Positions 1,922 through 27,573 of a stretch of DNA of 31,733 nt are shown one piece after another. The first letter of the stretch is position 1, and the number at the start of each line of letters is the position of its first letter. The notes beneath the pieces are model-generated. The model had not been told where the DNA came from, did not search any database, and was given only the letters and a program-made list of their open reading frames with translations. The DNA is from a virus. Location of the stretch: UHGV virus genome UHGV-0780004. One strand, given 5' to 3'. The translations under genes were made by a program, and so were the position numbers.

Positions 1922-2031
1922 AGAGCCGCAGGAAAAATAAACCTATTACCAAAAGAAAACCGGGGCGGCCGAGCCTCTACACCGAGGAACTCGCCGCCGA
2001 AATAGCCTCCCGTCTTGCCAACGGCGAAACC

Positions 2032-2439
2032 ATGAAATCCATCTGCTCCGATGACCACATGCCGGAGGTCTGGACGGTCTGGAACTGGCGTGAAACAAAG
2101 CCGGAGTTTTCCAAACTCATTCAACACGCACGGGAAGCGCAGTCGGAAGCTATGATTGACGCCTGCCAGGAGCTGGCCGACGAAGCCGCGAAAGTCGCCC
2201 TTGACCCGGAATGCGGCTCCGCCTCCGTCGCCGCGAAGAAGCTCGCCATTGAAACCCGGCTGAAAGTCGCCGCCCGCTTCGCTCCTGATAAATTCGGAGA
2301 CCGGGTCCGTCAGGACGTCGCCGGCGTTCCCGGAGCGCCGCTGGAACGGAAAATCACGCTGGACCCTGAGCAGCTCGCCCAGCTGCAGGAAGACGAGAAA
2401 ACCGCGCTGGAAACCATCGCCGGCAAACTCCATCCCTAA
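2032..2439 (+). CDS. Terminase small subunit (HTH DNA-packaging protein). The conserved N-terminus is encoded in-frame upstream (1951..2031) without a canonical start.
   Basis: Translating 1951..2060 in-frame gives KRKPGRPSLYTEELAAEIASRLANGETMKSICSDDHMPEVWTVWNW, the classic terminase small-subunit N-terminal motif. The first ATG is at 2032, but an in-frame ATT lies at 1945. The stop codon is in-frame and contiguous with the terminase large subunit. Confidence 0.7.
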   Translation: MKSICSDDHMPEVWTVWNWRETKPEFSKLIQHAREAQSEAMIDACQELADEAAKVALDPECGSASVAAKKLAIETRLKVAARFAPDKFGDRVRQDVAGVPGAPLERKITLDPEQLAQLQEDEKTALETIAGKLHP

Positions 2440-2472
2440 CCCGTCAGGACACGAATCCCCGTCAGCTTCTTC

Positions 2473-3819
2473 TTGCGCCATATCCTCCGCCTTGACCCCT
2501 ATCCATGGCAGGTGGAGTCCATCAAGGCGTTGTCCCTGGGTAAGCTGACCCTGGGAGGGAAAAGCGTGGCTCTGGTCGCTCCTAACGGATCCGGCAAGAC
2601 AAGCAACTGCATCGCTCCCGCCATCCTGTACTTTCTCACCTGTTTTCCGCGGGGACAGGTCCCCGTTACGTCCTCATCGTGGATGCAGGTGGAAAAGCAG
2701 CTCTTTCCCGCGCTCCGCCGCTACATGGACAATCCTTTCTTTTCCGGCTGGACCTTCAACAAGACGGAGATCCGCACGCCGGAGGGAGGCTTTGCCGTGG
2801 GTTTCTCCACCGACAACGCGGGACGTGCGGAAGGATGGCATCCAAAAATCTCGCCCGACGTGGATCCTGTCTTTTACGTCCTGGACGAGGCCAAAACCAT
2901 TCCGGACTCCATCTTCACCGCCGTTTCCCGCTGCACGCTCTTTCACGCGTTCATCACCTCGTCGCCGGGCGCCGATTCCGGCACCTTCTACGACTGCTTT
3001 CACAAAAATTCATCGCTCTACTACAAAATCCGCGTCAAATACGAGGATTGCCCGCACATTGAAATCAACGACCCGGGCAAGGCCGAACGCCTGAAAAAAG
3101 AATATGGTGAGCAGTCCTCCTTCTACCGCTCGGCCATCCTTGGTGAATTCACCGACCTTGACGGACAATCCGTCATTTCCCGCCGCGCTCTCATGGAGCT
3201 GGTCAACAACCCGCCTCCCTTCCTGGACACCGGAGAGACCTGCGGCGGCTTCGACTTTGCCGCGGGAGGCGATGAAAACGTCTTTGCGGCCGGGCAGGGC
3301 AACCGTTTTTTCATCGCCGACCACTGGTCCGACCCGGACACCGTAGGAGCGCGCGGACGTTTCCGCCGGAAGGCCGCCGAACTCGGCATCTCTGCCGACC
3401 GCATCTTTGCCGACGGCGACGGCCTAGGGCTCCCCATCATTGATGACTTCCGCGCCGAGGGCTTTCCGGTGCACTCCTACCGCGGCGGGTTTCCGGCGGA
3501 TGACACACAAGCCTTTGTCAATCTGCGAGCCCAGGCATGGCGGGCTCTCGCCCGCGCCATCGAAGAAAAAGAACTCATCCTCGACATTGACGAGGATACG
3601 ATTGAGCAGCTGGTTGCTCCACGACTCCAAACCGACGCAATAGGCCGCGTCCGCATTGAAAGCAAAGAAGATATGGCAAAGCGGGGCGTTCGTTCCCCAG
3701 ACCGGGCCGACGCCCTTGTGATGGCCTGGCACGCGCGCCGGAACAGCGGACTGGCGCGGACGCTGGGAGACTGGTACGCCCGTCCCGTGTCATCAAAACG
3801 CGCTTACGGGAGATATTAG
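2473..3819 (+). CDS. Terminase large subunit (ATPase/nuclease)
   Basis: Walker A is VAPNGSGKT, Walker B is VLDEA. The length is about 448 aa. A TTG is the first available start after the in-frame TAA of the small subunit. Confidence 0.85.
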   Translation: MRHILRLDPYPWQVESIKALSLGKLTLGGKSVALVAPNGSGKTSNCIAPAILYFLTCFPRGQVPVTSSSWMQVEKQLFPALRRYMDNPFFSGWTFNKTEIRTPEGGFAVGFSTDNAGRAEGWHPKISPDVDPVFYVLDEAKTIPDSIFTAVSRCTLFHAFITSSPGADSGTFYDCFHKNSSLYYKIRVKYEDCPHIEINDPGKAERLKKEYGEQSSFYRSAILGEFTDLDGQSVISRRALMELVNNPPPFLDTGETCGGFDFAAGGDENVFAAGQGNRFFIADHWSDPDTVGARGRFRRKAAELGISADRIFADGDGLGLPIIDDFRAEGFPVHSYRGGFPADDTQAFVNLRAQAWRALARAIEEKELILDIDEDTIEQLVAPRLQTDAIGRVRIESKEDMAKRGVRSPDRADALVMAWHARRNSGLARTLGDWYARPVSSKRAYGRY

Positions 3820-3872
3820 GGTTGACAACATATCAAGATATCAATATATGACGATATGTAAGCAATCGCAGG

Positions 3873-5321
3873 GTGGTGAAACGGTATCACGCGGGGTTCC
3901 TGTCCCCGAATCGAAGGTCCAACTCCTTCCCCTGCAACCACCTTTTCTTTAGCCTCAGGTTTAACGCCGTCAAAAATATCCTCAACGCCCCGAAGCTGGT
4001 AGCCCAACAGGAGACCAGAATCAAGGAGCTTGAAACGGACCTGGCCCGGCGAGCGTTGACGGAACAGAGCCGGAAGCCTAACCAGCCTCAATGGTACGAA
4101 TATTGGGACCCGTTACAGGGCGCCGACCTGCAAACCCTGATTGACGCCCGGAACGAAGCGCGGCGTGGAGCCTTTGCCCGCCAAATGCTCATTTGGGACG
4201 AGGTCATCTACTCGGACGGCTTGATGGGCATGCTCTATTCCCGGCTCATTGAAAGCGTCTCCATGCAGGGATGGAAGATTGACGCCGCGGACGACAGCCC
4301 GGAAGCCCAGCGTCAGCAGAACGCGCTGGAAGAATTCTATCACTCCGTCACCGGACTTCAACAGGCCTTTGGGCAGTTGGCCTCCGCTATGTTTTACGGG
4401 TACGCCCACCTCCAATACATCGAAGATTCCTGGGGCCGCCGCTTTGAATTCATCCCGCAGCGATACTGGGTGCGGCCCGGAGAGCTGAACGAATGGCAGT
4501 TTAATCCCCAGTGCTACATCGGGGTCGACACGGGCGAGAGCGTAGAGGAAGAAACGCTCGTGGTCATGGAGCACCGGAACCCCATTCTTTTTCCGGCAAC
4601 CCGCGCCTCTTTTGAGCGGAATCACGCCAAAGTTACGTGGGACAACCATATGGACCGCTACGGGAGCGCCCCGGTCATCATCACGGCGCCCAAGGACGCG
4701 AGCGCCGCCGTCATGGACGCGCTGGAACGGGCCTGTGAGGAACTCAAATCGGGAGCCTCCATTGTGCTTCCTCCCGGCTGCACCGCCGAACCGTTGAAAG
4801 CCTCCAACATCAACGAAAACTATTTCCTATCCCGAATCAACATGTCCGACAAGGACCAGGTGCGGTTTGTAATGGCCGGCACTCTGACCGTCCTGAATGA
4901 ATCAGGATCCGGCACGCTGGCCGGGGGAGCGCACACGGATAGCTGGAATTCGGTCGTCTCCGCGGTCTGTTCCAAGGTCGCCGAAGCTTTTAACGCCGCC
5001 ATCAGCCCGCTTGTCCTGGGAGACGGCGAACCGCTGGCCCGCCTCCACATCACTTTTGACGCCGTCCAGACCCCGCTGCAGAAAGCCGAGGAAATCGCCG
5101 CGCTTGCCGACGGAGGCGTCCGCCCCGAGAAGACCGAGATTGAAGAAAAGATCGGCATGTCGATCGAGGACACGCAGGACCCCGTTCCGGTGACGGCGGC
5201 GGCCAACAGGGAACCGGAAAAAGCACTCATTCCGCCCGATGCTTATGAACAGCTTCAGCAAATGATTTACGCCGGACTCATGAAAGGATTTACCGATGAT
5301 CAGCACGAAACAAATCAATGA
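3873..5321 (+). CDS. Portal protein (Mu gp29 / DUF935-like)
   Basis: It is 482 aa and follows the terminase large subunit. It sits upstream of a Mu protease I homologue. The annotated start is GTG, and the true start is uncertain. Confidence 0.6.
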   Translation: MVKRYHAGFLSPNRRSNSFPCNHLFFSLRFNAVKNILNAPKLVAQQETRIKELETDLARRALTEQSRKPNQPQWYEYWDPLQGADLQTLIDARNEARRGAFARQMLIWDEVIYSDGLMGMLYSRLIESVSMQGWKIDAADDSPEAQRQQNALEEFYHSVTGLQQAFGQLASAMFYGYAHLQYIEDSWGRRFEFIPQRYWVRPGELNEWQFNPQCYIGVDTGESVEEETLVVMEHRNPILFPATRASFERNHAKVTWDNHMDRYGSAPVIITAPKDASAAVMDALERACEELKSGASIVLPPGCTAEPLKASNINENYFLSRINMSDKDQVRFVMAGTLTVLNESGSGTLAGGAHTDSWNSVVSAVCSKVAEAFNAAISPLVLGDGEPLARLHITFDAVQTPLQKAEEIAALADGGVRPEKTEIEEKIGMSIEDTQDPVPVTAAANREPEKALIPPDAYEQLQQMIYAGLMKGFTDDQHETNQ

Positions 5322-6858: not shown

Positions 6859-6929
6859 CTATTAACCCCAACCAACAGAAAGACCAAGAACAAGGGCTAC
6901 TCCATTTTGCTCCGCCGTTCAGTTCACCG

Positions 6930-7819
6930 ATGTCCTGACCTCCTATTCCGCGGGGTCCGGGAACACCGAAGAGAACTCCATCATCAGCCGCATCGCTCCG
7001 ATCGTCCCGGTCTATGACCTGAATTTCCAGTACAAGGTCTGGGACACGGAATCGGCCTTCACCGTCCAGCCCATCCAGGTGGGGCCGGGCGAACCTCCCC
7101 GCCAGACCGTCCTGCGCGGAAGAAACGAAACCGACACCCTTCAGGGCTACGGCTTGACGCTGCCCATCCCTGACGCCTTGCTGGGCGTCAACCGGGAAAA
7201 GGCGCAGGCCATCACCCTGGCGGAATACAAACTCATCGAATCGCAGTTCGTCACTTCGTACGAATACGAACGCGCCAAGCTTCTGATGAGCCAGCTTCCG
7301 GCCGCTTCCGGCATGGGTGACTGGGCCAACCAGCAGAAAAACCCGTTGGCGGACCTGGACAAGGCAATCCTGTCCATCAATGCCGCAACCGGACACATGC
7401 CGAACACGATTGTCTTCGGCATCAACGCATGGCAGCTGCTTCGCTCCAACACGCTCGCGCGTCAGGTGGTTTCCTTCAACAGCGTCGGCCTGTTCAACGA
7501 AGACCTTCTTCGCATGGCTCTGATCCGTCCTATCCGGGATATTTACATCGCGTCCATGCCGTACCGCGACGCTTCCGGCGACGCGAAAACCATCATGGAA
7601 AACGAAGTCTATGTCCTGTACAAGGAAGACTCCCCGACGCAGTTCGACGCCTCCGCCGTCAAGACCTTCGGTCTTTCCGGCAAGCTTCGCCGAGAAGTCA
7701 TTACCGAATACAAGCCGACGCCGGCCTTGACGCTCGTCACAAACCGCGTCTACTCGCTGACCAAGTTGACGAACCCCAGCGCCATCGTCCGCATCGACGC
7801 GACGGCCACCGGCGATTAA
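6930..7819 (+). CDS. Major capsid protein (Mu gpT-like). The start is unresolved. The coding frame is open from 6866, and the first canonical in-frame start is GTG at 7079.
   Basis: The frame gives a protein-like N-terminus, LTSYSAGSGNTEENSIISRIAPIVPVYDLNFQYKVWDTESAFTVQPIQ, upstream of GTG 7079. An ATG at 6930 lies in the -1 frame and reads ATG TCC TGA. The size of about 296 aa fits HK97-fold capsid proteins. The gene follows the protease and DUF2190 genes. Confidence 0.55.
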
Positions 7820-11067: not shown

Positions 11068-11174
11068 CCATTTCCAGCACCAGGGCTACTACATACGATC
11101 CCACATTCACAAACCGCAATGTTACGCCGCAGATTACCGGCGTTCTGGCGATTTTCCTCCCCGACGGCATCAAG

Positions 11175-11732
11175 GTGACCGAAGACGGGGGAGTTTCCTA
11201 CGTCACCGGGCCGGACCAGTTTCCGACGCCTCCCACGGCTCCGCCCGCCGATCCGACAGCCGGGCCTGAACAGCCCTGGGTGAGTTTCGGGCTTTTGGGG
11301 GCTTTCCAATCCGTCGCAACCCAGGTCGAAGGAGAAGTGACGCGCTTTTACGGCGGCGCGCTGGGCTACCGCCAGCAGCGCAAGAACACGACGACCGGCA
11401 AGCGGATGACCTTCACCACGCCGGACATGTCCCCCGAATGGTTCCAGCTGTCTTTCGCTCTGGGAGCGCCTCCCTCCAATGGAGAGGAATCGACTACCGT
11501 CGGACATGGCGGCGACAACAAGATTGAGGGGTATCTTCACTTCTGGTATCAGAACGACGTGGGTACTATCTATCTGGTCGGAACGGCGCATGGCGCCTTG
11601 CGCCTCCTGCAGGATCCCGAACACACCACGGCGATTGCTTCACCCCAGTTCGAGTTCGAGATGGATTATCGCGGCAAGTACCAGTTCACGCCCTCCAATG
11701 TGCAGGACGAGACGCCGGCGCCGGGTTCCTGA
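11175..11732 (+). CDS. Putative tail component (major tail-tube candidate). The coding frame is open upstream from 11031 with no canonical start before GTG 11175.
   Basis: The ORF is 185 aa. The in-frame upstream peptide TYDPTFTNRNVTPQITGVLAIFLPDGIKV looks coding and contains ATT codons at 11070 and 11133. A strong terminator-like hairpin follows the gene. Confidence 0.35.
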   Translation: MTEDGGVSYVTGPDQFPTPPTAPPADPTAGPEQPWVSFGLLGAFQSVATQVEGEVTRFYGGALGYRQQRKNTTTGKRMTFTTPDMSPEWFQLSFALGAPPSNGEESTTVGHGGDNKIEGYLHFWYQNDVGTIYLVGTAHGALRLLQDPEHTTAIASPQFEFEMDYRGKYQFTPSNVQDETPAPGS

Positions 11733-11779: not shown

Positions 11780-11839
11780 CTCAGGCAGCAGGCAGGCAAA
11801 TACGATATCCGGACCGTCACAGGGCTCAACCAGTCCCTC

Positions 11840-13420
11840 GTGATCCGTATTCTGGACTTCCATGGCGACCCAGTTGATATGACAGGGGTGACGCTTCGGG
11901 GGGCTATCCGTCTCAAAAGCGGCATCACGGAATTTGGATATTCCACGGATGATGACGGCAATGGCGTGATCTCCTGGGAATCTGTCCCTCCCGGCGCCTG
12001 GGCCTACGATGTTTTTATGGACAGAAATGGAGATGAATCTCCCCTTCTGCGCGGATGTTTCGTTTCAGCCGGACGCGTGACTCCTGACTTGCCTGGCGAA
12101 AAACAAGCGATTGCCGGCGCCGTCATTGTCAATCTGCCCGATGGAAACGGATGCGTCAACGTACTGTTGGGAGGAGACTCCTCTGCCGCCTATTACGCGG
12201 AGCAGGCCAAAGAGGCCAGCAACGAAGCTCAACAGTCCAAGGAAGACAGCCAGAAGGCGGCGGAAAACGCCGGCCAATCCGCAGAATCCGCAGAAGATGC
12301 TGCCAAACGGGCCGAAGACGTTCTTGCTGCTATGCCTGAAATAGATGCCGAGGGCAATATGACCCTCCAGGGCAATCTGGCGGCCAAAGGAGCTGTGTTT
12401 ACCGAGCTAGTTACATGCGGAAAAGGGCTTTCTCTTCCCGGCGGGGAGAGAATTACATTAAGTAATGGGGGAGCAACAATTTTCGCAAATGAAAACAACG
12501 CTACCATACGCGTCCCCTCCCTTGCTTCTGCAGGAGAAATATCCGGCAATGCCGTAAATTGTAACAGGGTTGCTGCTTCTACTTTATCCATCAGCACGGC
12601 GGCTACTTTTGGAGGCACGATTAACGCCAACGGGGGTGTCAATATTCCAGTAGTGCCATCCACTGACACGGAGGCGGCCAGATTCCGCGAGGTGCAGCTT
12701 CTTCAGGAGATGGAGTTTTCTCCGTTGAGGACTTATTTCAAGTCTCCCGACCCTGTTCCCTTTGGCGTGCTTCTGGACCGTTTTTGGTGGGCTGCCAACA
12801 GAGATAATATGCCGGCATGGACAGTAGCCACGGCCGAGTTTTCCCAGATCAGTCCTGACTATTTCAATTTCGATTACGACAGCTTGACGAGTTGCTATTT
12901 TCCGATGTCCTGCGGTTTGGGGTTTGGACGGTGTTTCGATTCCATCGCCATCGGCAATGTTGCTTTCAATGCGGATTACGCGAGCCTGGATGGAGATCCG
13001 TTTGTCACGCCCGCGGATTATATGAGGTATTGGGTTGATGTTCAGATTGGCCGTCCGGCCAATGCTCAGTGCAGCGTGTTTGTCCGCATGTTCTGGTGGG
13101 ATCGTGGTTCCAACAGTCTCGTCAATACCGAGTATCGCTCTTCAGTTCCTGACAGTCTTGCGTTGCGGGGGGTGGCCTTGTCCATGACGAGTGAGTTTTC
13201 CGGGGTGTGGCTGGTTGGTTTTGATAAGAAGGTTGGCCGTCTTGTTTCCTATAAGGTTTTGCCGGAGACGTTTGAAGGGAGTTCCTATCGTGGGGTACTA
13301 TCCAATAATAGATTGTCTCTGGCAAAGACAGGATGGCATGCGGCTATGGGAGTCCATGCTCCCCGGTATTATGGAGGGACTGTTGTGGGAGAGTGGTGCA
13401 GTTTGATTCAGGCCAGTTAG
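11840..13420 (+). CDS. Tail fibre-like protein (526 aa)
   Basis: It has an Ala/Gln/Ser/Glu-rich coiled stalk, YYAEQAKEASNEAQQSKEDSQKAAENAGQSAESAEDAAKRAEDV, typical of phage fibre shafts. The C-terminal domain is Trp/Phe-rich and may bind a receptor. Confidence 0.45.
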   Translation: MIRILDFHGDPVDMTGVTLRGAIRLKSGITEFGYSTDDDGNGVISWESVPPGAWAYDVFMDRNGDESPLLRGCFVSAGRVTPDLPGEKQAIAGAVIVNLPDGNGCVNVLLGGDSSAAYYAEQAKEASNEAQQSKEDSQKAAENAGQSAESAEDAAKRAEDVLAAMPEIDAEGNMTLQGNLAAKGAVFTELVTCGKGLSLPGGERITLSNGGATIFANENNATIRVPSLASAGEISGNAVNCNRVAASTLSISTAATFGGTINANGGVNIPVVPSTDTEAARFREVQLLQEMEFSPLRTYFKSPDPVPFGVLLDRFWWAANRDNMPAWTVATAEFSQISPDYFNFDYDSLTSCYFPMSCGLGFGRCFDSIAIGNVAFNADYASLDGDPFVTPADYMRYWVDVQIGRPANAQCSVFVRMFWWDRGSNSLVNTEYRSSVPDSLALRGVALSMTSEFSGVWLVGFDKKVGRLVSYKVLPETFEGSSYRGVLSNNRLSLAKTGWHAAMGVHAPRYYGGTVVGEWCSLIQAS

Positions 13421-14311: not shown

Positions 14312-14563
14312 ATGTGCAAACTCTCCGAAGTACCGGCACGTTTTTTGGAATTAGCCAAGGCATCTCCAATGATTGCTTGTGTCATTTTGTCTCTGTCCAT
14401 TTGCGGCGCTGCCTGCTGGTACATCGGGGACGTCATGGGTCACCACAATGACCGCCTTTGTGATTTGATGACCATGCAGACACAAGTCCAGGTGGAGACC
14501 GCCAAGGCGATCCAACTGCTTGCCGTCCGAATCGAAAACATAGAAAAGAAACTGGAAAAGTGA
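14312..14563 (+). CDS. i-spanin / holin-like protein (83 aa): an N-terminal TM helix plus a C-terminal coiled coil
   Basis: The TM helix is MIACVILSLSICGAACWYIG. The periplasmic helix is LQVQVETAKAIQLLAVRIENIEKKLEK. Confidence 0.35.
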   Translation: MCKLSEVPARFLELAKASPMIACVILSLSICGAACWYIGDVMGHHNDRLCDLMTMQTQVQVETAKAIQLLAVRIENIEKKLEK

Positions 14564-14712
14564 ATAAGCTGCTGAATCCTTCCGTTCTTTTGCCGCTGAT
14601 GGGGTGCGTGATGGCCGGCGTTTTTGCCGCTTGCGGAGACACGGCGGCGGGCATTGCCGCGTTCTGTTTCCCCATTGCGTGCCTTGTGATCCTCCGATGT
14701 GCGGAAAGCTGA
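14560..14712 (+). CDS. Small two-TM hydrophobic peptide (50 aa, holin-like candidate), below the 60-aa ORF-track cutoff
   Basis: A GTG start overlaps the upstream stop (GTGA). The sequence is VNKLLNPSVLLPLMGCVMAGVFAACGDTAAGIAAFCFPIACLVILRCAES. It sits directly upstream of the amidase. Confidence 0.25.
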   Translation: MNKLLNPSVLLPLMGCVMAGVFAACGDTAAGIAAFCFPIACLVILRCAES

Positions 14713-14774
14713 CCAACTGTAAAGTTTTTCTTACAAGTTCCACTATATTAACAATCAACCATTAAAGGAGAATA

Positions 14775-15308
14775 ATCAGGAAAATAGCTATTGATATAGG
14801 CCATGCCAACAACACCGGGGCCCGCGGGAACGGGCTTGAAGAACACGCCGTCGCGGCGACGATCGCCGAACGCCTCGCCCCCATGCTGGAACGGCTGGGA
14901 GCCCGGGTGGATGTGATCGACTTCCCGAAGATGACCAATTCCCAGGACTTGAACGCCACCGTCAAGGCCGCCAACGAAGGCGGCTATGACTTCGGAATTT
15001 CATTGCATTGCGATTCGTCCGACAATCCCCAGGCTCATGGCGCTCATGTATGTTTCTACCCGGGAAGCGTCAAAGGAAGCCGGTTGGCCATATGCATCGC
15101 GGAACCTCTTGCCCGGCTGCTGCCCGGACGGGCCAACACCGTGCAGTCGCGTCCGGGACTGGCCGTCCTGAAAAAGACCCGCTGTCCGTGGGTGCTGTGC
15201 GAATGTGGATTCATCACCAATCCTGAAAACGCCTCTATTTTGAAGGACCATCCAGGACGCGTTGCCGAAGCCATTGCGGAAGGGGTGAAGGACTATATCA
15301 ACCAGTAA
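14775..15308 (+). CDS. N-acetylmuramoyl-L-alanine amidase (Amidase_3, endolysin candidate). The conserved N-terminus lacks a canonical start.
   Basis: The in-frame peptide KIAIDIGHANNTGARGNGLEEHAVAATIAERL (14781 onward) is the Amidase_3 N-terminal signature. A strong AGGAG motif lies at 14766..14770. The only in-frame start-like codons before ATG 14883 are ATC 14775, ATA 14784 and ATT 14790. Confidence 0.75.
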   Translation: MRKIAIDIGHANNTGARGNGLEEHAVAATIAERLAPMLERLGARVDVIDFPKMTNSQDLNATVKAANEGGYDFGISLHCDSSDNPQAHGAHVCFYPGSVKGSRLAICIAEPLARLLPGRANTVQSRPGLAVLKKTRCPWVLCECGFITNPENASILKDHPGRVAEAIAEGVKDYINQ

Positions 15309-17143: not shown

Positions 17144-18991
17144 ATGGCCACCAAGAAAGAAATTGAAATCAAACTCAAGTCCACGCTGGACGGAAAAGGC
17201 GTGGAAGAAGCCAAACAGCAGATCGACGCGCTGAACAAGTCTACGGAGCAGTTGGATAAAAACAGCAAGCAGGCAACCAGGAGCGTGAAGAACATGGGGC
17301 AGGGGGCCTTGCAGGCTGCCTATTTCTTCGATGACTTGCAGTACGGCATCCGGGGCATCATGAACAACATTCCCGGGCTGGTGATGGGATTCGGAGGCGG
17401 CGCAGGTCTGGCCGGCGCAATGTCGCTTGCCGTTCTGGCCGGGGCGAAGCTTTACGATTGGATGGGGAACACGGAAGCGAAATCCAAAGAGCTTGCTAAG
17501 GCGATTGAAGAGGAAGCAGAAGCATTTAGAAAATTAAAAGCAGAGGTTGAAGAGACATGGCGGCAAAATCAAAACGAGCAAATTTTAAGAGAAGCTTTAG
17601 ATAGTGCAAAGAAAATAGCTGATTATCGAAAGCTGGAATCAGAAGCCTTAAAATATTCTCTGGATTATCGTAAAGAATTGATTTCTTTAGAATCAGGAAT
17701 CAAAGACGATGAAGCAGAAATTGCCCGATTAAAGGTAGAAGAAGATTTTGCAAATGGACTATTAGGAGAAGGATCAGATGCAGAACGAAGAAAAGCACGT
17801 TTGTTGGAAGGAATTGAATTAGATAGTCGTGCAAGGAGAAGAGGAGAAATAGAAGAATCAGCAAGTTTGGATGTATCGGATGCAGTAAATAAAAGAATAG
17901 ATGCAGCACGAAGACAAAGAGAAGCTAAGGCCGCCTTGCAAAACGCATCTATTAATGATGATATAATGACCCTGGAAGAGAGACGAGCTGCAGAAGTTTC
18001 TGTAGAAGAACAGACTAATTCATTGAGAAATGACTTATACGATTATTTAATATCTTTAAGGGATAAAGAAGTAAATTTAGGGGCTATTAGGTATAAACAA
18101 GTTAGCGATAAAAATATTTATGATGCAGTATCTCAATTTGTTGGCGGTAAAAATATATCTGATAGAAGAATTTCATCCTTGCTTGATAAATATGGTTATA
18201 TCAACGCAGAAGATAGAAGAGATAAAATATTTAACACAGAAGAAGCCATAAAGAAGAGTGATATTGCCCTTGAAGATAGCGGATTCTCTTTAGGTAATGG
18301 AACTTCTGGCGAAGGTGGATATAGTAATGCCTATGCATCTTATGCAAAAACTATAGAAACTCTTGAAAAAGAATATGAAGAGGCGGAAAAATCTCTAATA
18401 GAAGCTATAAATGAAGAAGAAAAGGCAACGAGAAACTTTTCTAATATAAAAAAGAAAAATGAATCGGAAGCGGCAGTTGATGAACAACGAGGGAGGACCG
18501 CTCAAGCGCAAGAGAGAAAATCCATTAGAGAAGAAAGACAAAGAGAAGACGCCGAGAATGAAATTAAGGGGCGAAAAAAAGATATAGATAAGAAAACAGA
18601 GGAACTTAAAAAGAATAATGAGTATTTTTCAGAGGCTGTAGATAGGTTTATAGTGGAGGCTGGAAAATCTGCCACTGACCAACAAAAGGCACTTGTTAGA
18701 GCTGCATCTGAAGCTATACGTGGACAGGTGAAGAAAGCCGCTTCCGATGGAGTAATAGATTCTCGAGAATATGAACAAATTGGAATAGCGTTTAGAGACG
18801 CCTTAAGACAACAGGGCATTACTAATCAATCTATATTGAACGGACTTTCCGGAAACATGAAAGAAGCTCTATTACTGATTAACATTCAATCAGGAGAACT
18901 AAAAAATCTAAAAAACGGTTTGGATCAAATGAAAAAAGACTTAGAACAAGCTAAAAACAATATAGAGGGCTTAAGAAGAAGAAAGCATTGA
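17144..18991 (+). CDS. Tape measure protein candidate (615 aa). The N-terminus has hydrophobic Gly-rich segments, and the rest is a long charged coiled coil.
   Basis: The N-terminal segment is GLVMGFGGGAGLAGAMSLAVLAGA, followed by long Glu/Lys/Arg-rich helices. The position fits a tape measure. From about 17470 onward the gene is markedly AT-rich. Confidence 0.5.
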   Translation: MATKKEIEIKLKSTLDGKGVEEAKQQIDALNKSTEQLDKNSKQATRSVKNMGQGALQAAYFFDDLQYGIRGIMNNIPGLVMGFGGGAGLAGAMSLAVLAGAKLYDWMGNTEAKSKELAKAIEEEAEAFRKLKAEVEETWRQNQNEQILREALDSAKKIADYRKLESEALKYSLDYRKELISLESGIKDDEAEIARLKVEEDFANGLLGEGSDAERRKARLLEGIELDSRARRRGEIEESASLDVSDAVNKRIDAARRQREAKAALQNASINDDIMTLEERRAAEVSVEEQTNSLRNDLYDYLISLRDKEVNLGAIRYKQVSDKNIYDAVSQFVGGKNISDRRISSLLDKYGYINAEDRRDKIFNTEEAIKKSDIALEDSGFSLGNGTSGEGGYSNAYASYAKTIETLEKEYEEAEKSLIEAINEEEKATRNFSNIKKKNESEAAVDEQRGRTAQAQERKSIREERQREDAENEIKGRKKDIDKKTEELKKNNEYFSEAVDRFIVEAGKSATDQQKALVRAASEAIRGQVKKAASDGVIDSREYEQIGIAFRDALRQQGITNQSILNGLSGNMKEALLLINIQSGELKNLKNGLDQMKKDLEQAKNNIEGLRRRKH

Positions 18992-19024
18992 AAAAAAATG
19001 AGGATATTGTAAATTCCCAAATTT

Positions 19025-19432
19025 ATGCGGTATCACTATTTTTCCGGAAATGTTGTGAAGGGACCTATTGTTCTTACCGAGTTAAGAAGGTTAGTCGAGA
19101 GAAACATAATTTCTCCCGACACGTTAATTTGCGCAGAAGGTACAAAAAAATGGGTCAAGGCTTCGGAATTGTTATTTTCTTCTTCATTATTGAGGGAAAA
19201 TAGTGGGATCATGCATTCCCCTAATAAGGTTCCAACTTGCAAAGAAAGTCATTCTGCTCTTGCCACAGTCCTCGTATTCTTAGCAACATTGTCAGTTGGT
19301 GGTGGAGCAATTATGGGAATAGCAAGTTTTATATCAGGCTTATCTATGGCTGGAATAGGCTATATCGTCGGGGGGGTAATTGGTGGAATTATGTGGTATA
19401 CGTTTTATGTCCTATTAAGCAAAAATAAATAA
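19025..19432 (+). CDS. DUF4339 (GYF-like) domain plus glycine-zipper membrane protein (135 aa), a moron candidate
   Basis: The N-terminal segment YHYFSGNVVKGPIVLTELRRLVERNIISPDTLICAEGTKKWVKASEL matches the DUF4339 pattern (YY...G...GP......L......TLVW.eGm..W). The C-terminal segment GGGAIMGIASFISGLSMAGIGYIVGGVIGGIMWY is a glycine-zipper TM. The gene lies inside the AT-rich insert. Confidence 0.5.
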   Translation: MRYHYFSGNVVKGPIVLTELRRLVERNIISPDTLICAEGTKKWVKASELLFSSSLLRENSGIMHSPNKVPTCKESHSALATVLVFLATLSVGGGAIMGIASFISGLSMAGIGYIVGGVIGGIMWYTFYVLLSKNK

Positions 19433-19537
19433 CTAGGACAGGTAAACGCATTGCCGAACCAGGCAAGATACGGTAACATCAAGCCATAACATAACCATTT
19501 TACAAGCAGCAGGAACCACGACATCACCATCAATGAC

Positions 19538-21673
19538 TTGCTGGGCCTCAAGCCGTCCAGCCTGACCCACGACCAGCAAAGTTTTTCCGCCTCCACCATT
19601 ACCGCGATTTATCCTGTCCGGACGCTCGGAGAAACTTTGCCGTATAATCAATTTGACACAGTCTCCATATCTAGGGATGGCGTTGCCATCCTGGTAGGAT
19701 TAGTGTCCTCCGTCGAAAAAGTGTACAGCGGGCAAGCGCGATCCTGGAAAATTGTTTTCTCAGACCCTTGGTATTACCTGGAAAATTGCTATGCCCTTAA
19801 GGGCGGATGGCGGCCTGTCTACAATCTCTATGCCTCCGACAACGTCATCCCCAAAGCCAAAATCAGCGATGCCATTAAAGGGGTATTAGACACGGCCAAG
19901 CACCACCCGGCCACGTATGAACTGCGGATCAACGACGACAAATTAATAATCCCCTGGAATGCCTCATGCGATACCATAGGCAGCCTGCTTCAATCTATCC
20001 GTCGATGGTCTCCTCGCATGGTCAGCTACTACGACTACAGCGGCAATCAGCCCAAGCTCATTATCACGGACTATGACTCTTTGGAGCCTATATCGATGCC
20101 CTTGCAGCCCACGGACACCGTCAAGAGCATTGACGTTTCCCTCTCTCCTCGCGGCGATCTTGTGCCGCCTTGCGTCGCCATTGTCGCAGACACCAGTGGA
20201 AGCAGCGGCTACAATGTCTCTTACCTCTCCAGATATCCGGCTGACGGCGATCCTACGCTCCCCCACTCCATTGTTTACCGGGTTGCCTCTGATTTTTATT
20301 ACTCCAAATACAACTCAGACGGCTCTGCCGCATCCGAGCCCGTTCCTGTGTCATCCACCAGGTCGGGCAGTCTGGCCTACCAGCGAATGAAAATCCGCGG
20401 CCGCCAGATCAACCAATCCAGCATGATCACCAGTTTCTGGGAGCGTCACTTCCCGTGGATGCAAGAGCTTGAGGCTGCCAACCAAATAATACCGTATGCG
20501 GCGCCGTCTATCACCGGAAAGGCATGGGATGGAGCAAGCGGAGAGGATGAGCCGAAAGGATATGACACATCAGCAACAGGGTTTGAACTGGTCGAAGGTC
20601 AAATCCACACCAAGGCCCTCAACCCTAAATGGTGCAAGACTACCATCAAGCAGCGGCTCTGCATCCCGGAATCTGCTCCTGCCCAGTGGAGGGATAAATT
20701 CAAAAACATCGGCACCATCGGTACCACCACGGTGTACTGGCAGGAATTTGCCGTTGACCTGGTCACGATGGACCGCGCCTACTCTACTTATCCGATCGAT
20801 GGCATGTACAACGGCGAGCAGCCCTCCAATGAGGATGATGGCGGCGACGAGCCTGCTGATGGCGTGCCATATGCGGACATTGCCCGGGCCGTATGGGAAT
20901 CCATGCAAGAACTCCCTTACGATGGGGACATCGCCTTCGCAGCTCGTGGCGGCGCTCAAAACTGGCAGTATATGGGACGGCGCGTATCGCTGACCGGAGG
21001 AAACCCTGAATGGGAAAACATCAACACGCTTGTCCAGACTGTCAGCCATGATTTACAGACAGACGTTATTACTCTTGCCTATGGGGCAGCAAACCAACTT
21101 GGAGTCGAAGATTTATTGGAACTAAATCAAGTAAATGCTATATCTCGGCAATCTTCCTCTTTAGAAAACATGCAGGGCGCGCCCGAACCCGGCGACCTGA
21201 CGTACGACCCCAAGCCAGAATCCCCGACCATCAGTCAGCAAATAACCGCATCCACCGGATCTTCCGAGCCGGCTCCTGAATACGGATTCCAAATACGTCT
21301 TGAAAAGGACACCAGTGGAGCTGTCACCGGTGCGAGTATCAAACCCGGCGCCATCTACCTCAACGGCTCGTTCCTGGGAATGTATCCGGCCGGCGCCGGA
21401 TCCGGATCGTCCTGGGTGAAAATCCCGGTCACGGCGGGGGAAGTATGGCTGAACCTCCACTTTGACCAAGACGCGAAACTGGACACCTGGGATATTTCCG
21501 GCATTCCCGGGCCGGTATATCCAATTTTCCTCAATACTGAAAAACCCAACGTCGCGTTTGACTACGCCTTCCATGTAGCCGACATCGATGGAGACAAGGT
21601 AACGCAATATGCCCTCGGCATGATCCAGGTGCCCGTGTTCGGCGGAACCTTCTATCCCTACGGCCCGTCATGA
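19538..21673 (+). CDS. Large distal tail / baseplate protein (711 aa; Dit/Tal-like position)
   Basis: It is a long ORF directly downstream of the tape-measure region with a TTG start. No enzymatic motif was recognised. Confidence 0.4.
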   Translation: MLGLKPSSLTHDQQSFSASTITAIYPVRTLGETLPYNQFDTVSISRDGVAILVGLVSSVEKVYSGQARSWKIVFSDPWYYLENCYALKGGWRPVYNLYASDNVIPKAKISDAIKGVLDTAKHHPATYELRINDDKLIIPWNASCDTIGSLLQSIRRWSPRMVSYYDYSGNQPKLIITDYDSLEPISMPLQPTDTVKSIDVSLSPRGDLVPPCVAIVADTSGSSGYNVSYLSRYPADGDPTLPHSIVYRVASDFYYSKYNSDGSAASEPVPVSSTRSGSLAYQRMKIRGRQINQSSMITSFWERHFPWMQELEAANQIIPYAAPSITGKAWDGASGEDEPKGYDTSATGFELVEGQIHTKALNPKWCKTTIKQRLCIPESAPAQWRDKFKNIGTIGTTTVYWQEFAVDLVTMDRAYSTYPIDGMYNGEQPSNEDDGGDEPADGVPYADIARAVWESMQELPYDGDIAFAARGGAQNWQYMGRRVSLTGGNPEWENINTLVQTVSHDLQTDVITLAYGAANQLGVEDLLELNQVNAISRQSSSLENMQGAPEPGDLTYDPKPESPTISQQITASTGSSEPAPEYGFQIRLEKDTSGAVTGASIKPGAIYLNGSFLGMYPAGAGSGSSWVKIPVTAGEVWLNLHFDQDAKLDTWDISGIPGPVYPIFLNTEKPNVAFDYAFHVADIDGDKVTQYALGMIQVPVFGGTFYPYGPS

Positions 21674-22490: not shown

Positions 22491-22535
22491 AGCACGGAAA
22501 GCCTGATTTTATAAGGATTCCGTGCTTTTTCTTTG
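22491..22535 (+). terminator. Candidate terminator: a 9-bp stem AGCACGGAA/TTCCGTGCT with an 18-nt loop, followed by TTTTTCTTT
   Basis: Read directly. It lies about 75 bp downstream of the GT-like gene. The large loop lowers confidence. Confidence 0.35.
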
Positions 22536-22565
22536 CGCCATATTACGCCAGAAAACGGAATGCTT

Positions 22566-22607
22566 GCTGTACAAGTGGCTGTACAAGTTTTAAAAATTGT
22601 ACAGTTC
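22566..22607. promoter_or_regulatory. Three copies of a TGTACA(A)G-containing repeat (GCTGTACAAGT x2, then TTGTACAGTT) immediately upstream of the integrase start
   Basis: The two 11-bp direct repeats are at 22566..22576 and 22578..22588. A third variant is at 22598..22607. TGTACA is itself palindromic. Confidence 0.4.
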
Positions 22608-22609
22608 GC

Positions 22610-23797
22610 ATGGCAGGGATTATCAAAAGAAGTAATAAATGGGTGGCCGTCTTCAAGACGCTCGACGGTAAAGAGATCAGGAAAACTACCCGTGTCGACG
22701 TGGTCCCAAAGGTTATTCCACCCGGGACAAATAAAAGAGCGCTCATAGCGCAAAACGAGGCCAGGGCTCGTCTTATTGCCGAGGAGCTTGAGAATGGACA
22801 CAAGACCGGCTTTATTGACTCGCAGCGGCTCAAAGCTATAGCTGGCGGAGATGTTCAGGCGGCCAGCCTTGGCAGAAAGGTTGTGAGCGTTGGGGCGTAT
22901 CTCCATGAATGGTTGCAATCACGATCTGGCAAGATTCAGGCTTACGAAAGAGACGGGAAGGCCGTCAAGCAGTTTATTTTGTTCTTGAGGAACGATGGGG
23001 GACAGGCAATAGCATCCATCAATAAAGACACCGTGAGACGATTTGCGGAGACAGAAATGGAGCGCGTGTCATCCGGTACAGTCTCAAGGTATCTTGAATC
23101 TCTTTCCTGTGCGTTTAACCAGGCGGTGGAAAAAGAATTGATCATCTCCAATCCTTTCAGGGGGGCTCGACTGGATAAGAAAAAAAAGCAAGACGATAAA
23201 CAGGAGCGTAGTGCGTTCACCGTGGAAGAGGTGAAAAGACTGGTGGAGATTTTGCCGGGGGAATGGCCGGATATGATACGTGTATGCCTTTATACGGGCG
23301 GCCAGCGTCTTGGAGACATTGCCACTCTCAGATGGGAGCAGGTGAATCTGGAGGGCGGCTTAATCTCCATGACCTCGCAAAAGACCAAGCGGCGTATGAA
23401 CAAACCAATCATCGGGCCGCTGAAAGAGATATTGAAAGAGAGGGAAAAGTATTCCATCAATGAATTTGTGTTCCCCTTGGCCGCCATGAAGCATGCACAG
23501 GGCGGGGGGAAGTCCAGCAAGCTCTCTCTTGAGTTTACCGGACTACTGAAAAAACACGGCATGATTTCTTCCGGGGAAAGGAAAGTGCCAGGCGATAAGC
23601 GTGTGCTGTCTGAAAAAAGCTTCCACAGTTTGAGAGCCACCGCAGTGACGATTTTAAGACTGGCAGGCGTGCCGGCGGACTTGTGCCGTTTCATTGTAGG
23701 GCATGATTCTGAAGAGATTGAACGGGTGTACTTTCGGCCCGATTCGCAGGATGTCGTTCACGCAATGGAGGAAATATCCAGCAAGATTATTTTGTAA
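22610..23797 (+). CDS. int: Tyrosine-type site-specific recombinase (phage integrase)
   Basis: It has an N-terminal SAM-like domain. The catalytic region carries R (GGQRLGD), H-x-x-R (HSLRAT), VGH and Tyr (RVYFRP). It is 395 aa. Confidence 0.9.
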   Translation: MAGIIKRSNKWVAVFKTLDGKEIRKTTRVDVVPKVIPPGTNKRALIAQNEARARLIAEELENGHKTGFIDSQRLKAIAGGDVQAASLGRKVVSVGAYLHEWLQSRSGKIQAYERDGKAVKQFILFLRNDGGQAIASINKDTVRRFAETEMERVSSGTVSRYLESLSCAFNQAVEKELIISNPFRGARLDKKKKQDDKQERSAFTVEEVKRLVEILPGEWPDMIRVCLYTGGQRLGDIATLRWEQVNLEGGLISMTSQKTKRRMNKPIIGPLKEILKEREKYSINEFVFPLAAMKHAQGGGKSSKLSLEFTGLLKKHGMISSGERKVPGDKRVLSEKSFHSLRATAVTILRLAGVPADLCRFIVGHDSEEIERVYFRPDSQDVVHAMEEISSKIIL

Positions 23798-26859: not shown

Positions 26860-27573
26860 ATGCAAAAATACAAATTTACTGGAGAAACAAAGGAGGTGTA
26901 TGGCTGCACCTTGCACCAGATCGTATGCGTAACAGCGTTTGCCTCCGTCGCTGCCGGAGAGGTTGGCGGCTACATTGAAAAAGAAGTCAACCTGTCCCAA
27001 GACGGGAACGCCTGGGTCTTCGGGGACGCCGAGGTCTTCGGGAACGCCGAGGTCTTCGGGGACGCCAAGGTCTTCGGGAACGCCAAGGTCTTCGGGAACG
27101 CCAAGGTCTTCGGGAACGCCAAGGTCTTCGGGGACGCCAAGGTCTTCGGGAACGCCAAGGTTCGCGGGGACGCCGAGGTCTTCGGGAACGCCGAGGTCTT
27201 CGGGAACGCCGAGGTCTTCGGGGACGCCAAGGTCTTCGGGGACGCCAAGGTCTTCGGGGACGCCGAGGTCTGCGGGGACGCCGAGGTCTGCGGGAACGCC
27301 ATTTTGAGACGTGGGTCCACCGAGACGGCAACCGATTACATCGTGATTGGACCCCAGGGATCGCGCCGGAGTTTTGCGACGTTGCATTTACCCTCCAATA
27401 CGGTGTGCACTGGGTGTTTTGTCGGAGACTTGAATGAATTCAAGGTAGCGGTCTCCACTAGTCACAATCCTAATCACTGTGATGACTGCAAGATCTTCAA
27501 CGAGCAGTATCAGCGTGTTATCCAGGTGTTTGAATTTTACGCGAAGGACCGTCAAGACAAAGATGTTCAATGA
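26860..27573 (+). CDS. Hexapeptide tandem-repeat protein (237 aa): about 16 consecutive (D/N)A(E/K)VFG units, flanked by Cys-containing N- and C-terminal regions
   Basis: The array is read directly. The C-terminus contains CTGCFVGDL...HCDDCKIF. The operon context favours the + strand. All frames are open through the array. Confidence 0.5.
   Translation: MQKYKFTGETKEVYGCTLHQIVCVTAFASVAAGEVGGYIEKEVNLSQDGNAWVFGDAEVFGNAEVFGDAKVFGNAKVFGNAKVFGNAKVFGDAKVFGNAKVRGDAEVFGNAEVFGNAEVFGDAKVFGDAKVFGDAEVCGDAEVCGNAILRRGSTETATDYIVIGPQGSRRSFATLHLPSNTVCTGCFVGDLNEFKVAVSTSHNPNHCDDCKIFNEQYQRVIQVFEFYAKDRQDKDVQ
27007..27300. repeat. 18-bp tandem-repeat array (about 16 units of [G/A]ACGCC[G/A]AGGTCTTCGGG)
   Basis: The units are near-identical and differ only at two A/G positions. 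This makes it a VNTR-like locus within the coding sequence. Confidence 0.9.

Follow-up and report, generated by a model that had tools for sequence, protein, structure and literature searches.

To our knowledge, the anticodon of the initiator transfer RNA (tRNA) is CAU in all natural systems. AUU of infC is a natural near-cognate start that is read by the host initiator, and phage stop-codon recoding by suppressor tRNAs has reportedly been described by Borges et al. 2022 (Nat Microbiol) and Ivanova et al. 2014 (Science). The GTC of Streptomyces sigR is reportedly another natural near-cognate start (PMC5472188). In Escherichia coli, engineered initiator tRNAs with altered anticodons start translation at the complementary codon (PMC11744186), the pair CCU/AGG being the best of the non-canonical ones, with expression increased 35- to 402-fold (bioRxiv 10.64898/2026.04.16.719103). 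By means of an amber initiator tRNA, phage genes have reportedly been made dependent on a special tRNA (bioRxiv 2024.07.29.605542). Only such engineered systems were encountered in the open-access and bioRxiv literature searched, which yielded neither a natural initiator tRNA whose anticodon is other than CAU nor a natural system of AGG starts. The present analysis concerns the UHGV virus genome UHGV-0780004, a stretch of 31,733 nucleotides (nt) hereafter called the window, in which a phage tRNA with the anticodon CCU and initiator-type features is encoded together with a set of late genes, including the gene of an Amidase_3 endolysin, that appear to start at AGG.

This tRNA(CCU) of initiator type and the AGG starts together probably constitute a natural orthogonal initiation system for late genes. 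The likeness to engineered orthogonal initiation is that an initiator body with a changed anticodon would start at the complementary non-AUG codon; the engineered systems are laboratory constructs, whereas that of the phage would be natural, family-wide and spread over about eight late genes. As in phage stop-codon recoding, a phage tRNA would give a new meaning to a codon that clusters in the late structural and lysis genes, and this could bind the translation of late genes to a tRNA of the phage itself, but recoding reads a stop as an amino acid in elongation, while here a sense codon would be used for initiation. With near-cognate starts the phage genes share a non-AUG start at the normal spacing from a ribosome-binding site. 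Near-cognate starts, however, use the normal formylmethionyl-tRNA (fMet-tRNA), are inefficient and regulated by IF3, and occur in single genes, in contrast to the dedicated complementary tRNA and the many highly expressed genes of the phage.

The endolysin gene and its start codon

The following features define the endolysin locus.

14778..15308, plus strand: Amidase_3 endolysin (N-acetylmuramoyl-L-alanine amidase), 176 codons, PF01520 match, putative AGG start
14778..14780, plus strand: putative AGG start codon of the Amidase_3 endolysin, aligned exactly with the ATG of MKIAIDIGH homologues
14766..14770, plus strand: Shine-Dalgarno-like AGGAG, 7 nt 5' of the amidase start codon, kept in relatives

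The amidase frame follows the in-frame stop TAA at 14763-65 and continues as AGG AGA ATA ATC AGG AAA ATA GCT ATT GAT ATA GGC CAT, in translation RRIIRKIAIDIGH. A preliminary description of this stretch had remarked that no ATG, GTG, TTG or CTG occurs between this stop and ATG 14883, which lies 34 codons past the K codon 14781, and had placed AGGAG at 14766-70 and an ATC at 14775, 4 nt after it; the sequence is as described there. The amidase matches Pfam PF01520 (E=4.9e-30, 105.3 bits with a cut-off of 27) over profile positions 1-173 of 174, profile position 1 being the Ile at 14784. The same description held that a start at ATG 14883 would cut the N-terminus of the domain, and the profile bears this out: such a product would miss about 33 profile positions including the N-terminal GH motif, which serves as a zinc ligand in Amidase_3 and is present in the product if the start is at 14778.

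Relatives were collected by a protein search, and the start region was then read in the DNA of 59 related loci; the counts for the amidase refer to loci and not to independent phages, some contigs having been entered more than once. The homologues come in two forms, one of 176-193 residues with the N-terminus MKIAIDIGH or MNIALDIGH, the other of 141 or 158 residues and starting at the equivalent of M14883. The 176-residue homologues show 79-94% identity; the 193-residue forms (P0005, P0008 and P0014) owe their length to 17 residues inserted behind the HCDS motif.

The ATG of the full-length homologues aligns with AGG 14778-80 and not with ATC 14775. Among the 56 aligned loci, this codon is AGG in 36 and ATG in 20, which answers the question, raised in the preliminary description, whether related amidases carry ATG. 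AGG is found here in at least three sublineages with different flanking codons. The motif 7 nt upstream is always AGGAG, or AAGAG in a few loci, and the codon preceding the start varies between lineages (ATC, CTC, CCC, TCC or TAA). When the coding sequences are placed on a neighbour-joining tree, the ATG and AGG states are interleaved, and locus L009, with an ATG start and a 98% identical protein, is nested in the AGG clade containing the window. Over the 34 N-terminal codons of the AGG-bearing loci, the variable sites are distributed 6/2/16 among codon positions 1/2/3, the changes are purely synonymous in 14 of the codons and no stop occurs. Such variation, biased to third positions, shows that these codons are under purifying selection and that the region is translated. 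Given the interleaved states of the tree and the working N-terminal codons, the AGG of the amidase does not look like a recent lesion.

Putative AGG starts in other late genes

To judge from the aligned loci, the AGG start of the amidase belongs to a pattern that extends over the genome. In seven further late genes, g19511 being a probable member, coding conservation begins at an AGG and no conserved canonical start is near.

1930..2439, plus strand: TerS (terminase small subunit), AGG 1930-32 invariant in all aligned loci
2446..3819, plus strand: TerL (terminase large subunit), AGG 2446-48, a variable 5-7 nt after the TerS stop
3957..5321, plus strand: Mu-type portal protein, AGG 3957-59, Pfam Portal_Mu match
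6893..7819, plus strand: major head protein, AGG 6893-95, AGG in 47 of 48 aligned loci
11082..11732, plus strand: g11082, late structural gene of 216 codons, AGG in 39 of 39 aligned loci, with a variable spacer before it
11783..13420, plus strand: g11783, late structural gene of 545 codons, AGG in 40 of 40 aligned loci, with a T/C-rich indel spacer before it
19511..21673, plus strand: g19511, late gene of 720 codons, probable AGG start on weaker evidence, AGG in 6 of 6 loci

Common to these genes is an upstream stop followed by a short variable spacer, a conserved AGG and then variation of the coding type. The AGG of TerS is kept though the upstream flanks are unrelated mosaics; the N-terminus of profile phrog_1482 extrapolates to about 1930, and the first ATG (2032) falls within the conserved N-terminal region. 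In the major head protein, position 14 of profile phrog_1005 aligns to residue 13, and the homologues P0121, P0126 and P0168 start with M at the residue of AGG 6893. Profile N-termini therefore map onto the AGG codon in the amidase, TerS and the major head protein. The portal start is AGG in 50 of 50 aligned loci, and across 27 spacer variants the third-position-type conservation starts exactly at AGG 3957-59, the first ATG of the frame being that at 4185. The spacer between the tRNA and the portal gene is T/C-rich with indels. It leaves 16 nt between the 3' end of the tRNA and the AGG, which starts at the 17th nt, and no Shine-Dalgarno motif is present in 3941-3959; the 5' end of the portal messenger RNA might arise when the tRNA is processed. 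For g19511 fewer sequences were compared. Codons 19514-35 of this gene vary in a third-position-like manner 5' of a conserved TTG (19538), and no canonical start follows TAA 19487.

Internally AGG is rare, with 30 of the 6638 codons of the 24 late genes (0.45%), and it is codon 1 in eight of these 24; several of the AGG-start genes have no internal AGG at all. The remaining late genes have ATG starts, several of which overlap the end of the preceding gene, and canonical starts are also found at the integrase gene and on the replication side, in some cases behind a strong AGGAGG site. The nucleotide preceding the AGG (1929, 2445, 3956, 11081, 11782, 14777 and 19510) is C in seven of the eight genes and A in that of the major head protein, and it is nearly invariant in relatives. 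This C might pair with G37 of the tRNA, in which case codon and anticodon would be joined by four base pairs.

Other candidates for starts were tried and rejected. TTG 2473 in TerL and GTG 11840 in g11783, both given by the open reading frame finder, are not conserved, being CTG, CTC or CTT and GTC, respectively, in relatives; GTG 7079, given by the same finder for the major head gene, is located deep within the conserved coding part of that gene, and AGG 1516 is CGG in relatives. The codon listing also contains AGG 13410 and AGG 31177, which precede nearby canonical starts. Stop-codon read-through or frameshifting from upstream was dismissed, the stops and indels lying upstream, as was a role of AGG as a mini Shine-Dalgarno motif for a downstream start, the AGG being replaced at the same codon by ATG or TTG in the relatives L110 and L126 described below.

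The phage tRNA(CCU)

The tRNA gene and the element preceding it are as follows.

3867..3940, plus strand: tRNA with anticodon CCU and initiator-type features, found by ARAGORN and Rfam (52.7 bits), with encoded CCA and A73
3822..3850, plus strand: promoter-like TTGACA-17 nt-TATATG just 5' of the tRNA, read from the sequence

This is the single tRNA of the window according to ARAGORN and Rfam. It sits inside the late operon, between TerL and the Mu-type portal gene, and its anticodon is CCT, reading AGG. It is found at the same place in 43 of 43 related portal loci, in 14 sequence variants, with the anticodon CCT in every copy; the CAU anticodon of bacterial initiators is absent.

The acceptor stem, CGCAGGG/CCCUGCA, has a C1xA72 mismatch followed by G2:C71 and C3:G70, and in the anticodon stem of the window G29-G31 are paired with C39-C41, which makes three G:C pairs. 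These features, including G30:C40, are shared with bacterial tRNA-fMet, as is A73, and the acceptor stem hardly differs from that of E. coli tRNA-fMet. Unlike bacterial tRNA-fMet, the phage tRNA has CCU in place of CAU, U11:A24, an odd T-loop and a location in a phage late operon. With CCU and not CAU, it should read AGG and should not be a substrate of methionyl-tRNA synthetase.

Covariation was examined in an alignment of the 14 phage variants with E. coli tRNA-fMet. All 20 cloverleaf pairs are paired in every aligned sequence, 11 of them with compensatory changes when the E. coli row is included, and the observed score was reached by none of 500 shuffles. Elongator tRNAs have a Watson-Crick pair at 1:72; unlike them, all 14 phage variants have an unpaired CxA there. 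Position 2:71 is G:C in 13 variants and G:U in the remaining one, all 14 have C:G at 3:70, and G30:C40 never changes. The anticodon stem departs from the pattern in four variants, two of which have A29:U41 and two U31:G39. It is the three G:C pairs of this stem, above all G30:C40, that admit an initiator to the ribosomal P site. As described in PMC5389676, C1:A72 with the pairs 2:71 and 3:70 is the major determinant for the formyltransferase, G30:C40 is the essential anticodon-stem pair of the initiator, and A29:U41 belongs to a natural type of initiator exception (au/GC/GC).

The TTGACA-17 nt-TATATG element is preserved across 27 upstream variants, and the region 3822-3866 also holds two ATATCAA repeats and an inverted repeat, ACATATC/GATATGT, which are kept in relatives. 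From its conservation we infer that the TTGACA-17 nt-TATATG element is a promoter; a strict consensus scan for promoters and terminators near the tRNA reported nothing. The conserved elements of the region suggest that transcription of the tRNA may be regulated. A weak minus-strand match to Rfam mir-981 at the upstream region is most likely due to the ACATATC/GATATGT hairpin. The idea that the tRNA is a host gene marking an attachment site was discarded, its place between TerL and the portal gene being far from the integrase at 22610.

Relatives with and without the tRNA

In L110, the most divergent of the tRNA-bearing relatives, the codon at the position of the major head AGG is ATG, and for TerL an ATG stands beside the position of the AGG. 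A head-protein homologue with M at the residue of the AGG led to the lineage L126-L128, which is more distant but syntenic. In L126 no tRNA was found in the 15.6 kb examined of a 24.7-kb contig, including the 95-nt spacer between TerL and the portal gene. At the six homologous codons L126 has ATG for TerL, the major head protein, g11082, g11783 and the amidase, and TTG for the portal protein; at the g11082 start, for example, its ATG opens MATTLSPDYANRNVSPQITG, versus AGG-ATTYDPTFTNRNVTPQITG here. On these alignments the tRNA accompanies the AGG starts, and canonical starts are seen where no tRNA was found, that is, in one tRNA-less lineage.

The window is an essentially complete genome of a temperate Akkermansia phage. 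Over its whole length it is collinear, in a circular permutation, with the unannotated GenBank record CP084202.1 (Akkermansia phage DTMo-2021a, 31,946 bp), which carries the tRNA as well. The complete A. muciniphila genome CP048438.1 contains a prophage (L123, 68639-89475) with the same tRNA and the same AGG starts. In the gene calls of CP048438.1, the genes of TerS, TerL, the portal protein, the major head protein and the two tail-region proteins all lack their 5' part and begin at an internal ATG, GTG or TTG. The public proteins P0010-P0027 and P0122-P0166 likewise have their N-termini cut, with an amidase of 141 residues and a major head protein of 246 or 278 residues. The gene calls of this prophage family are shortened because AGG is not accepted as a start codon.

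Proposed mechanism and alternative explanations

It is proposed that the phage tRNA(CCU) would decode AGG in the P site as an initiator. AGG would then be the start codon of TerS, TerL, the portal protein, the major head protein and two tail-region genes, probably of one more, and also of the amidase in roughly half of the relatives. At the amidase gene AGGAG 14766-70 would be bound by the ribosome, which would have AGG 14778, seven nt further 3', in its P site, and the outcome would be the full 176-residue enzyme with its zinc-binding N-terminus. The tRNA presumably acts as an initiator by way of formylation, IF2 and the P site. The best guess for its amino acid, from C35 and U36, is Arg, and Met is possible too. 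Late-gene translation would in this way be made dependent on the phage tRNA.

Several observations weigh against this interpretation. In about a quarter of the tRNA variants, one of the three pairs 29:41, 30:40 and 31:39 is not G:C. The D stem has U11:A24 in all phage variants and not A11:U24, a feature of bacterial initiator tRNAs; the T-loop is unusual, with C55 in most variants. With respect to arginine, A20 is the E. coli identity element, and the D loop AACGGUA has U at position 20 (in our numbering) and no A20. The tRNA also occurs in phages with an ATG amidase, which means that it does not co-vary with the amidase start, and the tRNA-less comparison rests on one lineage and on 15.6 of 24.7 kb. 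Finally, the U31:G39 of two variants is the reverse of the G:U exception in PMC5389676.

A different account would have AGG, which is one base from AUG, read weakly by the host fMet-tRNA (CAU) as a near-cognate codon, the phage tRNA(CCU) being only an elongator for rare arginine codons. According to Seong and RajBhandary 1987, as reported, a 1:72 mismatch excludes an initiator from elongation, and in the phage the C1xA72 mismatch is kept in 14 of 14 variants while other stems covary. As regards an elongator tRNA-Arg(CCU), the anticodon CCU is there, but the Watson-Crick pair at 1:72, A20 and A37 are not; A37 is usual in readers of ANN codons, and position 37 is G in 13 of the 14 variants. The 30 internal AGG codons of the 24 late genes would give such an elongator something to read, yet several genes with an AGG start have none. 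Phage tRNAs for rare codons are reported to be common (PMC10264068). Some initiation at AGG is measurable in E. coli reporters, though IF3 suppresses it where no dedicated tRNA is supplied (PMC6868393). A weak start would also be improbable for a head protein needed in many copies per virion, and AGG starts are absent from the relative in which no tRNA was detected. On balance, weak reading of AGG by the host initiator is unlikely.

Two further accounts concern the amidase only, and both go back to the preliminary description, which favoured non-AUG initiation at ATC, ATA or ATT or else a very recent start-codon mutation. Non-AUG initiation as such is upheld, but not at these codons: the ATG of the homologues corresponds to AGG 14778. 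A start at ATC 14775, ATA 14772 or 14784, or ATT 14790 through the host initiator tRNA would use recognised rare bacterial start codons, and the ATC is 4 nt after AGGAG; the ATC is replaced by CTC, CCC, TCC or TAA in relatives, however, and the other codons lie 1 nt (ATA 14772), 13 and 19 nt from AGGAG. ATA 14784 and ATT 14790 are conserved, but they are Ile codons of the first strand of the domain, so their conservation is uninformative on initiation. Besides, ATC, ATA and ATT initiate with an efficiency of about 0.1-1% (PMC11744186), and we consider a start at any of them very improbable. That the gene is a recent start-codon mutant or pseudogene, or yields only the truncated 141-residue product from ATG 14883, is hardly credible. 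A single T-to-G change does turn ATG into AGG, and gene callers give a 141-residue amidase in many relatives. Yet AGG is widespread over several sublineages (36 of the 56 loci), the tree is interleaved, the 34 N-terminal codons vary mainly in third positions without stops, the truncated amidase would lack the N-terminal GH motif, and the AGG pattern recurs in seven further late genes, the majority of which should be essential. The preliminary description had also reasoned that ATG in related phages would imply a mutation or pseudogene; the ATG is indeed there, but the implication does not follow, since AGG appears to be a systematic start accompanied by a phage tRNA(CCU).

Neighbouring genes and other features of the window

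Two small genes precede the amidase.

14312..14563 (ATG) and 14560..14712 (GTG), plus strand: two small hydrophobic-protein genes, open reading frame translations, 5' of the amidase

Neither protein had a family match in the profile search; from their position and hydrophobicity they are probable holin-type lysis partners. The phage amidase resembles other Amidase_3 (PF01520) phage endolysins in its full-length domain and its position after small hydrophobic-protein genes, and it departs from them in its start codon alone.

The last late gene is followed by a terminator-like hairpin, GCACGGAA..TTCCGTGC, with a T-run behind it (22491-22604). Just 5' of the integrase ATG (22610) there are three TGTACA(AGT) direct repeats, which could be binding sites of the integrase or of a regulator. 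The region 17144-19432 has a low content of guanine and cytosine, 35-47% versus 55-60% elsewhere, and contains a 615-codon open reading frame with 25 AGA codons, unlike the other late genes; this module may have been acquired elsewhere. An 18-nt tandem repeat in 16.6 copies (CGGGAACGCCAAGGTCTT) occupies 27003-27301 inside the open reading frame 26860..27573, which has a weak, sub-threshold match to the YdcK beta-solenoid repeat. A perfect 17-nt direct repeat (CCCTGGAATCTCGTATA) is present twice at 1425-1458, just after a DnaC-like gene.

Significance

The terminase, portal, capsid, tail and lysin annotations are truncated in a prophage family common in A. muciniphila, and work on the homology, structure and expression of these proteins starts from the wrong N-termini on account of the truncated public annotations. 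If the proposed interpretation is true, the system would depart from the standard genetic code in a new way, at initiation and not at stop codons, and would be a natural counterpart of engineered orthogonal initiation with the same AGG/CCU pair as the best performer in E. coli. It appears rather likely that these temperate phages of the human gut bacterium Akkermansia muciniphila have a private start codon, that the proteins concerned may begin with (formyl-)arginine, and that late translation is tied to the tRNA, which could lock virion production and lysis. This suggests a new way in which a prophage may gate its late genes.
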